This document shows, in pieces, positions 1,871 to 2,222 of a stretch of DNA of 64,000 nt (its first letter is position 1; each line of letters starts with the position of its first letter). The stretch is taken from NCBI GenBank assembly GCA_964016885.1, contig CAXHJY010001565.1:1-64000 (forward strand). Reading direction: 5' to 3'. The position numbers were made by a program, and so were the translations under genes. The DNA is from Eledone cirrhosa. Taxonomy: Eukaryota. A model generated the notes under the pieces. It was not told where the DNA came from. It made no database searches and saw nothing but the letters and a program-made list of their open reading frames with translations.

Positions 1871-2222
1871 ATGTACACGTACATACATATATGTATACAG
1901 TAGTATGTATATATATATACATACATGCACACATATATATATGTACGTATGGATTCACCGAACATTTATTATAATGCTCAGTGTGTTTGTAAACAAACAT
2001 CCCGTATCAAGCCGCAGTGCCCAGCAACCATCTTTGCTCGTTTGTTCAAGACTGACAAAGGAACGCTATACCAGTTTCAAGCTTATTAGCTATCGTCAGC
2101 AACATATACCTTCCTGTCAGATTATTGAACGTATATACTTACCTTATGCATATTAATGGCTGAGTAGCCCAATTTGCATATTGAATGGGTTAATCGGCCG
2201 GGTGCACCAAAAACGATAAACG
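1871..2222 (-). mobile_element. Diverged single copy of the 466-bp hammerhead (retrozyme-like) unit
   Basis: Colinear similarity to the units at 23481-29223 (tttgtaaacaaac, gtttcaagctt.ttagctatc.tcagca, aatttgcatattga, aaaacgataaa). Confidence 0.85.
2062..2106 (-). ncRNA. Type I hammerhead ribozyme (diverged retrozyme copy)
   Basis: Minus strand ATGTTG-CTGACGA-T-AGCT-AATA-AGCT-T-GAA-ACTGGT-A-TAGCGT; extended stem I spans about 2044-2130. Confidence 0.8.

Follow-up and report, generated by a model that had tools for sequence, protein, structure and literature searches.

The repeat and its surroundings

The window analyzed here, that is the whole stretch of 64,000 nucleotides, carries a repeat with a hammerhead ribozyme motif in two settings, as a lone copy near its beginning and as a tandem array further downstream (Table 1). 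The lone copy, itself of ordinary sequence, is embedded in a (TA)n run of about 3.4 kb. In blastn comparisons it aligned to the array units with 71.6% identity over 356 columns, and no family copies beyond the lone copy and the array were found in the 64-kb window. Ends of reads reaching past 2224 continue like an array unit; hence, the lone copy is truncated at its 5' end. A fragment 65 nt from it, at 2288-2350 (approximately 2290-2350), resembles what we take to be the 3' end of an octopus SINE.

Table 1. Positions of the repeat, its predicted structural parts and neighboring elements in the window
Feature	Position	Strand	Remarks
Lone hammerhead repeat copy, 5'-truncated	1871..2222	-	Single, between (TA)n runs
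Long TA/TG-rich hairpin	1873..1949	-	3' end of the lone copy; occurs in the array unit too
Downstream hairpins D2 and D3	1958..1999	-	D2 at 1999-1984, D3 at 1981-1958
Downstream hairpin D1	2023..2038	-	Closing pair 2033/2028 broken in the lone copy, at 2033
Extended stem I, 3' arm	2044..2068	-	Predicted 5' end of the released monomer
Type I hammerhead core	2069..2099	-	Predicted cut between 2069 and 2068
Helix III hexamer	2070..2075	-	Palindromic ACUAGU in array and read majority; ACUGGU in lone copy
Extended stem I, 5' arm	2100..2130	-	Proximal helix of 6-7 bp, bulge, then 4, 6 and 7 bp
Upstream hairpin U2	2145..2180	-	14/15 positions paired; octamer ATGCAAAT in 5' arm at 2179-2172
Upstream hairpin U1	2194..2210	-	5 bp; same pairs in array and read majority
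Penelope-like element with inverted 5' copy	about 3440-5910
Frame with RT-type motif and C-terminal GIY-YIG	4171..5418	+	Part of the Penelope-like element
Hammerheads of the Penelope-like element	3612-3640; 5709-5737	-; +	Unrelated to the repeat
Array, left arm	23476..26786	-	7.1 units, 7 hammerheads, the outermost with disturbed helix II
Array, right arm	26782..29223	+	5.2 units, 5 hammerheads; inverted (divergent) to left arm

The array (23476-29223) consists of two divergent arms, which have about 5 nt in common at their junction near 26785 and run into (TA)n at both outer ends. Together they contain 12 hammerheads at a period of 466 bp, 11 of which match the full family pattern, and the units are 99-100% identical to each other. 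Complete type I hammerheads recur from unit to unit along the array, whereas the lone copy is a monomer and by itself lacks this organization; the candidate active element is the array rather than the lone copy. The 466-bp unit is short, with a GC content (0.36) under 50%, and non-coding: its longest sense ATG frame comprises 48 aa, and antisense frames of 112 and 93 aa are of low complexity. No LTR layout was seen around the repeat in the window, and a tRNA-derived head of the unit was unsupported, no tRNA gene being found. Among minor peculiarities, an A-run is expanded by 12 nt in one array unit (near 28990), and helix II of the leftmost unit is disturbed. Directly upstream of stem I the array has a perfect 16-bp palindrome (27485-27500), shortened by an 8-nt deletion in the subfamily of the lone copy (2131-2141), with both forms present among the reads described below.

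Family members were collected from four of six candidate public runs by aligning reads and contigs to 1943-2226 at a likeness of at least 80%. These runs represent three samples from two studies. One sample gave the contigs (4218 and 3875), and two samples of one study gave the RAD reads (22389 and 21373), mostly 90-95% alike. The hammerhead family is abundant, with thousands of variants. The counts are unphased, with "majority" defined per position and 55 variant rows lying outside the display, and RAD reads favor copies with certain cut sites. Lone-copy types were commoner and array types rarer among the aligned reads, a comparison biased by the choice of reference, as the lone copy under-samples array-type reads. 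The best run shares 0.30 of the lone copy's words and the source of the reads may be a relative, so some letters counted as rare may be species differences. Viral contigs gave 0 matches to the repeat.

Hammerhead motif and upstream block

The conserved elements of a type I hammerhead, CUGANGA, GAAA and an NUH triplet (GUA), are all present. The core of the lone copy combines CUGACGA, a U/U at the base of helix II, a 4-bp helix II with an AAUA loop, GAAA and GUA, while helix III is reduced to one pair and a tetraloop. In the array and the read majority helix I is open-ended and about 6 bp long, helix II about 4 bp, and helix III short and palindromic; in the lone copy three pairs of helix I are wobbles and helix III is imperfectly palindromic. 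The G10.1-C11.1 pair at the base of helix II is absent, being replaced by U/U in both the lone copy and the array. A search of the window with the family core pattern gave 12 matches, against 0 in 100 shuffles. Rfam models detected no family at gathering score over the window, and none of the 33 matches up to E 10 within 1800-2400 belonged to a hammerhead family. MicroRNA models of Rfam matching the TA hairpin scored far under their own thresholds, as expected of a composition effect, and AAUA/AACA was not counted as evidence for a conserved "RNYA" loop motif, a term that we did not find in the literature. A bulged stem I with loop contacts is the standard layout of animal type I hammerheads as described in PMC4209133.

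The closest parallels for the two weak points of this motif come from the axolotl (PMC7229834): HHR_Amex1 likewise has a helix III of one pair and a palindromic tetraloop, and HHR_Amex2 a U/U mismatch at the base of helix II. According to that work, monomers of the axolotl motifs in which helix III has a single pair or helix II starts with U/U cut by 6% and 22% within one hour, dimers cut far better, and invertebrate helix III is usually more stable. The repeat differs from both axolotl motifs in uniting the two weak features, in its invertebrate host and in its stem I of about 24 pairs; a need for dimers, as in HHR_Amex1, HHR_Amex2 and newt satellite 2 (PMC7229834), is predicted for it. Since helix III, with one pair and a palindromic tetraloop, appears too weak to act alone, adjacent units would pair as a double hammerhead. 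For two array units the double hammerhead was computed at -185.7 kcal/mol, against -186.6 for the free minimum and -169.7 for two single hammerheads, these energies being calculated without tertiary terms. The predicted self-duplex of helix III amounts to -4.8 kcal/mol for the palindromic form versus -3.2 for the form of the lone copy, and the palindromic letter at 2072 is found in about 97% of reads in run X4 and in 99.8% of the depth in run X1.

We regard it as unlikely that the long stem I instead enables one ribozyme to cut as a monomer through fold stability and loop contacts, which would allow single copies to be active. The hammerhead-compatible single fold does lie just 1.4-2.5 kcal/mol above the free minimum, a local stem of 24 pairs would presumably form first in transcription and could resist strand swapping, and folding programs ignore tertiary contacts; but axolotl motifs with either weak feature cut poorly as monomers (PMC7229834), the repeat has both, and at least about 97% of the reads retain the palindrome. 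In the double-hammerhead reading the same stem would also serve the cut product. A circular 466-nt monomer is predicted to fold at -152.4 kcal/mol, with stem I closing its ends (z -6.4, a score inflated by the TA hairpin; 0/60 shuffles), and such a highly self-paired circle is a feature of retrozymes.

Hairpins are predicted through the whole unit, so that the structure conservation claimed for stem I by an earlier reading of the sequence alone (the sequence-only reading), though upheld there, is not confined to it. Hairpin D2 is common to the lone copy and the array, in which a different hairpin takes the place of D3, and the downstream hairpins recur with different sequence in the two. In the upstream block, which is 87% conserved between majority and array, U1 keeps 5/5 pairs, with 4 differences all in its loop. 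The 12 majority/array differences of the block comprise eight unpaired positions, two that keep pairing, one that makes and one that breaks a pair; taken alone, the block has no more stable a fold than shuffled sequence (z -0.1 to -1.8).

The octamer ATGCAAAT is exact in 12/12 array units and in the lone copy, with a chance expectation of 0.03 per unit. This feature recalls newt satellite 2, whose promoter is said to contain an octamer element. It is conceivable, if improbable, that the unit drives transcription of itself from an internal promoter of the snRNA type, with the octamer and a proximal element located in the upstream block. The conservation of the block, the recurrence of the octamer and the fact that array/majority differences in U2 spare the octamer arm agree with such a promoter, and newt satellite 2 provides the precedent of an snRNA promoter (PMC2220036). 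On the other hand, attention was drawn to the octamer only post hoc, 57.9 kb of background contain two octamers, and the reads at 2171-2174 are selected for an overlapping cut site. Moreover, as the octamer constitutes one arm of hairpin U2, its conservation is explained equally well without a promoter. A sigma-70 promoter scan is irrelevant to animal DNA.

Pairing in stem I and the state of the lone copy

The sequence-only reading saw in the lone copy a diverged family member that preserves the ribozyme fold by compensatory change, and in the family an older structured RNA rather than a neutral satellite. All of the individual changes on which it relied are present in the alignment: the CTGA-N-GA and GAAA boxes equal those of the array except at the free position 2095, loop II changes from AACA to AATA at 2085, a G.U pair of stem I is flipped to U.G at 2102/2066 (also in the pair tables), TGGG/CCTG is replaced by AAGG/CCTT (2112-2109 with 2061-2058), and GTTCAA/TTGAAC is kept. 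The change of CTGGCA to CTGACA (2117) also exists, but it is a one-sided minority allele, seen in at most about 12% of reads, and not a compensation. Similarly, preservation of the stem by compensatory change applies to two two-sided swaps, while four more pairs change one-sidedly. In total, the 87-nt ribozyme region of the lone copy differs from the array at 16 positions, four of which make up the two swaps, and 28/30 pairs are kept and two lost. The proximal stem I is weakened, its first pair passing from G-C to G.U and its fifth from C-G to U.G, its seventh pair is lost (A-U to U/U), as is the pair 2124/2050 (C-G to U/C). In helix III the array's palindromic ACTAGT has become ACTGGT. None of these weakening changes was listed in the sequence-only reading. 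The 87-nt ribozyme folds at z -1.97 in the lone copy versus -3.15 in the array, and for 2045-2145 the values are -0.03 and -2.49, although the latter spans are not exactly equal. The statement that other parts of the unit are much more diverged fits the downstream part (67/133, 50% identity), but the upstream part (76/90, 84%) is like the ribozyme (71/87, 82%). As the comparison within the window involves effectively two haplotypes, with one differing row, the finding that the pair count was reached in 22/500 shuffles is without test value.

In the reads, the majority letters differ from the array at 10/87 positions of the ribozyme, keep 29/30 pairs and include the two two-sided swaps, whereas random placement of the differences breaks about five pairs (P 0.002-0.005 for retention and 0.006-0.009 for two swaps, with a pair list drawn with both sequences in view). 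For the raw lone copy retention of 28/30 pairs likewise beats random placement (P 0.001-0.004), and the two-sided count is marginal (P 0.047-0.076). At 2102/2066 the 5' letter of the reads is U, G or A and the 3' letter is G or U, and the 5' share of G+A tracks the 3' share of U across six read classes (r 0.98, the classes not being independent). In four of these classes the two shares are 0.24/0.24, 0.77/0.70, 0.23/0.24 and 0.80/0.68; the two contig sets fit less well (0.40/0.30 and 0.37/0.25). These shares fit states of U.G, G.U and A-U, a coupling that shared descent alone can also produce between two such sites. Among 22 classified polymorphic positions, 13 are unpaired, two keep pairing alone, two constitute the pair 2102/2066 and five break pairs unless the partner changes. 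One of the five is 2058, for which the array has a changed partner, and three are located at the ends of helices. The last is 2057, where a variant carried by 13% of the reads in one class (6 starts) disrupts a pair within a helix unless a hidden partner compensates for it; position 2130 was left out as an ambiguous row, likely an alignment artefact of the 8-nt insertion. The array's U.G at 2112/2058 is absent from its own MFE fold, which weakens one of the two swaps. It is likely that the long stem I of the family is under selection. The earlier proposal of selection on an extended, bulged stem I is accordingly supported at the level of the family, but not in the sense that the lone copy is itself a preserved older member.

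The reads point to a different history for the lone copy. At 15 of its 284 letters (5%) it differs from most reads (about 71-99.9%, depending on position and run), and at 12 of these 15 the majority letter is that of the array. Six of these rare letters fall within the ribozyme (2050, 2068, 2072, 2104, 2117 and 2124); at the first three, about 97-99.9% of the depth carries another letter. They are mostly transitions (13/15) and are enriched at CpG sites (6/15 versus 36/284 sites, P 0.007), but are not depleted in the ribozyme (6/87 versus 9/197 elsewhere, P 0.40). Their energy cost, 6.2 kcal/mol for the ribozyme and 10.8 for the whole unit, corresponds to about the 70th percentile of random changes; the ribozyme MFE is -27.9 kcal/mol with majority letters (z -3.2), -27.4 in the array (z -3.2) and -21.7 in the lone copy (z -2.0). 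The CpG bias, the random-like energy cost, the broken pair and the spoiled palindrome together suggest that these letters likely reflect neutral decay rather than compensation. ADAR (A-to-I) editing made permanent by reverse transcription could account for four sense-strand A-to-G changes against 0 T-to-C among the rare letters (2008, 2015, 2020 and 2072), but these are too few for such a claim, and one is shared with the array.

There is only a slim chance that the lone copy represents a separate and still functional subfamily in which all differences are tolerated or compensatory. Its intact catalytic boxes, the survival of 28/30 pairs, the five of 15 rare letters that keep pairing by wobble or by G.U to A-U, the occurrence of the 2117 letter in up to about 12% of reads and the possibility that the reads stem from another species are compatible with such a subfamily. 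Yet positions 2050, 2068 and 2072 read otherwise in nearly all of the depth, the energy cost equals that of random damage with a CpG bias, pairs 2124/2050 and 2033/2028 are broken, the palindrome is spoiled, and the copy is single and truncated. We favor decay of the lone copy. As transition-biased decay generates G.U wobbles automatically, "compensation" deduced from one copy against an array mixes real subfamily covariation with such decay and calls for caution.

Relation to retrozymes and Penelope-like elements

The repeat resembles the metazoan non-LTR retrozymes described in PMC7229834 in being a non-coding tandem repeat with a GC content below 50% and a single type I hammerhead per unit, in its highly self-paired predicted circle and in its co-occurrence with Penelope-like elements, here represented by the frame at 4171-5418. 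It departs from them in unit length, which at 466 bp slightly exceeds their range of 150-450 bp, and in its likely cephalopod host, a group unmentioned in the main text of that work. With vertebrate non-LTR retrozymes it shares the occurrence of multimers and dispersed solo monomers, and the array satisfies the rule of at least two consecutive complete motifs by which these are called "active" (bioRxiv 10.64898/2026.07.22.740005). According to the same preprint, vertebrate families span 51-972 bp, monomers are viewed as immobile offspring, and only 1/9 predicted Xenopus retrozyme dimers cut in vitro. Unlike those families, whose survey did not sample molluscs, the repeat shows no homology to Penelope terminal repeats within the window. 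The minimal hammerheads of Penelope terminal repeats (PMC4209133) are similar in that helix III is palindromic, helix II has an additional nucleotide at its base and a dimer model applies, but have a helix I of 4-5 bp, a helix II of 7-8 bp and a neighboring RT frame. The repeat has 6-7 bp plus the long extension, a 4-bp helix II and no frame, and neither flanks an RT-endonuclease frame nor combines a short helix I with a long helix II. The repeat likely works like a non-LTR retrozyme, the testable features of which it displays apart from the U/U at helix II, for which HHR_Amex2 is a precedent, and the lone copy is likely a member of a hammerhead retrozyme family in an octopus-like animal. We did not find such a family in the literature on cephalopod and octopus hammerheads, retrozymes and satellites, though the supplements of PMC7229834 and of the 2026 preprint might list one.

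The protein of the nearby Penelope-like element has a homolog in Octopus bimaculoides with 54% identity. Along with the SINE-like fragment next to the lone copy, this homolog suggests that the host is probably an octopus or a related animal. Comparison of the unit with nine hammerhead-bearing regions of the window gave a best match of 13 nt at E 0.04, of low complexity, and none to a Penelope terminus; the element is likely an example of the mobilizing class and not a homolog of the repeat. Inverted 5' copies and (TA)n targets are traits of Penelope-like elements (PMC8557442), and the inverted array with its (TA)n flanks matches these insertion traits.

Taken together, we consider it fairly probable that the lone copy is a truncated, decaying member of an abundant non-LTR retrozyme family whose units are predicted to cut as double hammerheads and whose monomers would be mobilized by Penelope-like elements. 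By analogy with known retrozymes, tandem units would be transcribed by read-through. Adjacent units may then swap their stems I and pair their palindromes, so that stem I, with its roughly 24 pairs, would form twice in the double-hammerhead fold, and the inner one would clamp the 5' end of the released 466-nt monomer to its 3' end. This double occurrence and the clamping of the ends would provide the reason for selection on the extension, which may act first in dimer assembly and next in ligation. As in known retrozymes, the monomer would be circularized by a host RtcB-type ligase, copied by rolling reverse transcription and inserted into (TA)n by a Penelope-like RT/GIY-YIG protein. The lone copy, having no partner in cis and having lost the perfect palindrome, is probably inactive.

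A further elaboration, which we offer tentatively and consider doubtful, is that in a cephalopod family of thousands of copies the 24-pair stem I offsets a doubly weak hammerhead, first by bringing the double ribozyme together over the 380 nt of a unit and later by clamping the ends for circle formation, with an internal octamer promoter convergent with that of newt satellite 2. On this reading, the many subfamilies would amount to a natural mutational scan of the balance between cutting and ligation in a retrozyme. More generally, the repeat would add a likely cephalopod family, missed by Rfam models, to the non-LTR retrozymes, give the stem I extension a concrete job in dimer assembly and end-clamping, and bear on how animal retrozyme circles are cleaved and ligated and what prevents them from being cut again.

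It is very unlikely that the repeat is instead a satellite spread by unequal crossover from a Penelope terminal repeat, with the ribozyme a relic and pair-keeping due to inherited structure and transition bias: the near identity of the array units, the frequency of this core type in minimal hammerheads of other animals and the discussion of such a route in bioRxiv 10.64898/2026.07.22.740005 agree with it, but the two-sided swaps arose by transversion (transitions make up 4/10 differences), 2102/2066 shows three states, the inverted junction and the dispersed single copy in (TA)n suggest RNA-mediated insertion, and there is no match to Penelope termini in the window.

Several other hammerhead-like motifs were noted in the window. 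One at 63568-63596 (minus strand) is related to the hammerheads of the Penelope-like element. A near-perfect inverted pair with a long helix II, at 31256-31292 (minus) and 31516-31552 (plus), lies in the region 31200-31620 between (TA)n runs and belongs to a different family. Additional CUGANGA...GAAA motifs at 11197-11237, 16810-16837, 20506-20529, 32418-32440, 41338-41378, 41531-41561 and 51333-51374 are probably in part minimal Penelope-type hammerheads and in part chance occurrences. Metagenomes yielded 65 loci (L001-L065) with the same core type, none homologous to the repeat beyond 26-33 nt of the core, which makes them unusable for covariation analysis. They are minimal hammerheads, were selected for a U/U at the helix II base, and probably stem from host animals whose DNA entered the assemblies. 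Of the 47 distinct metagenome hammerheads with this core, 43 have a helix III that is palindromic, in most cases ACAUGU.
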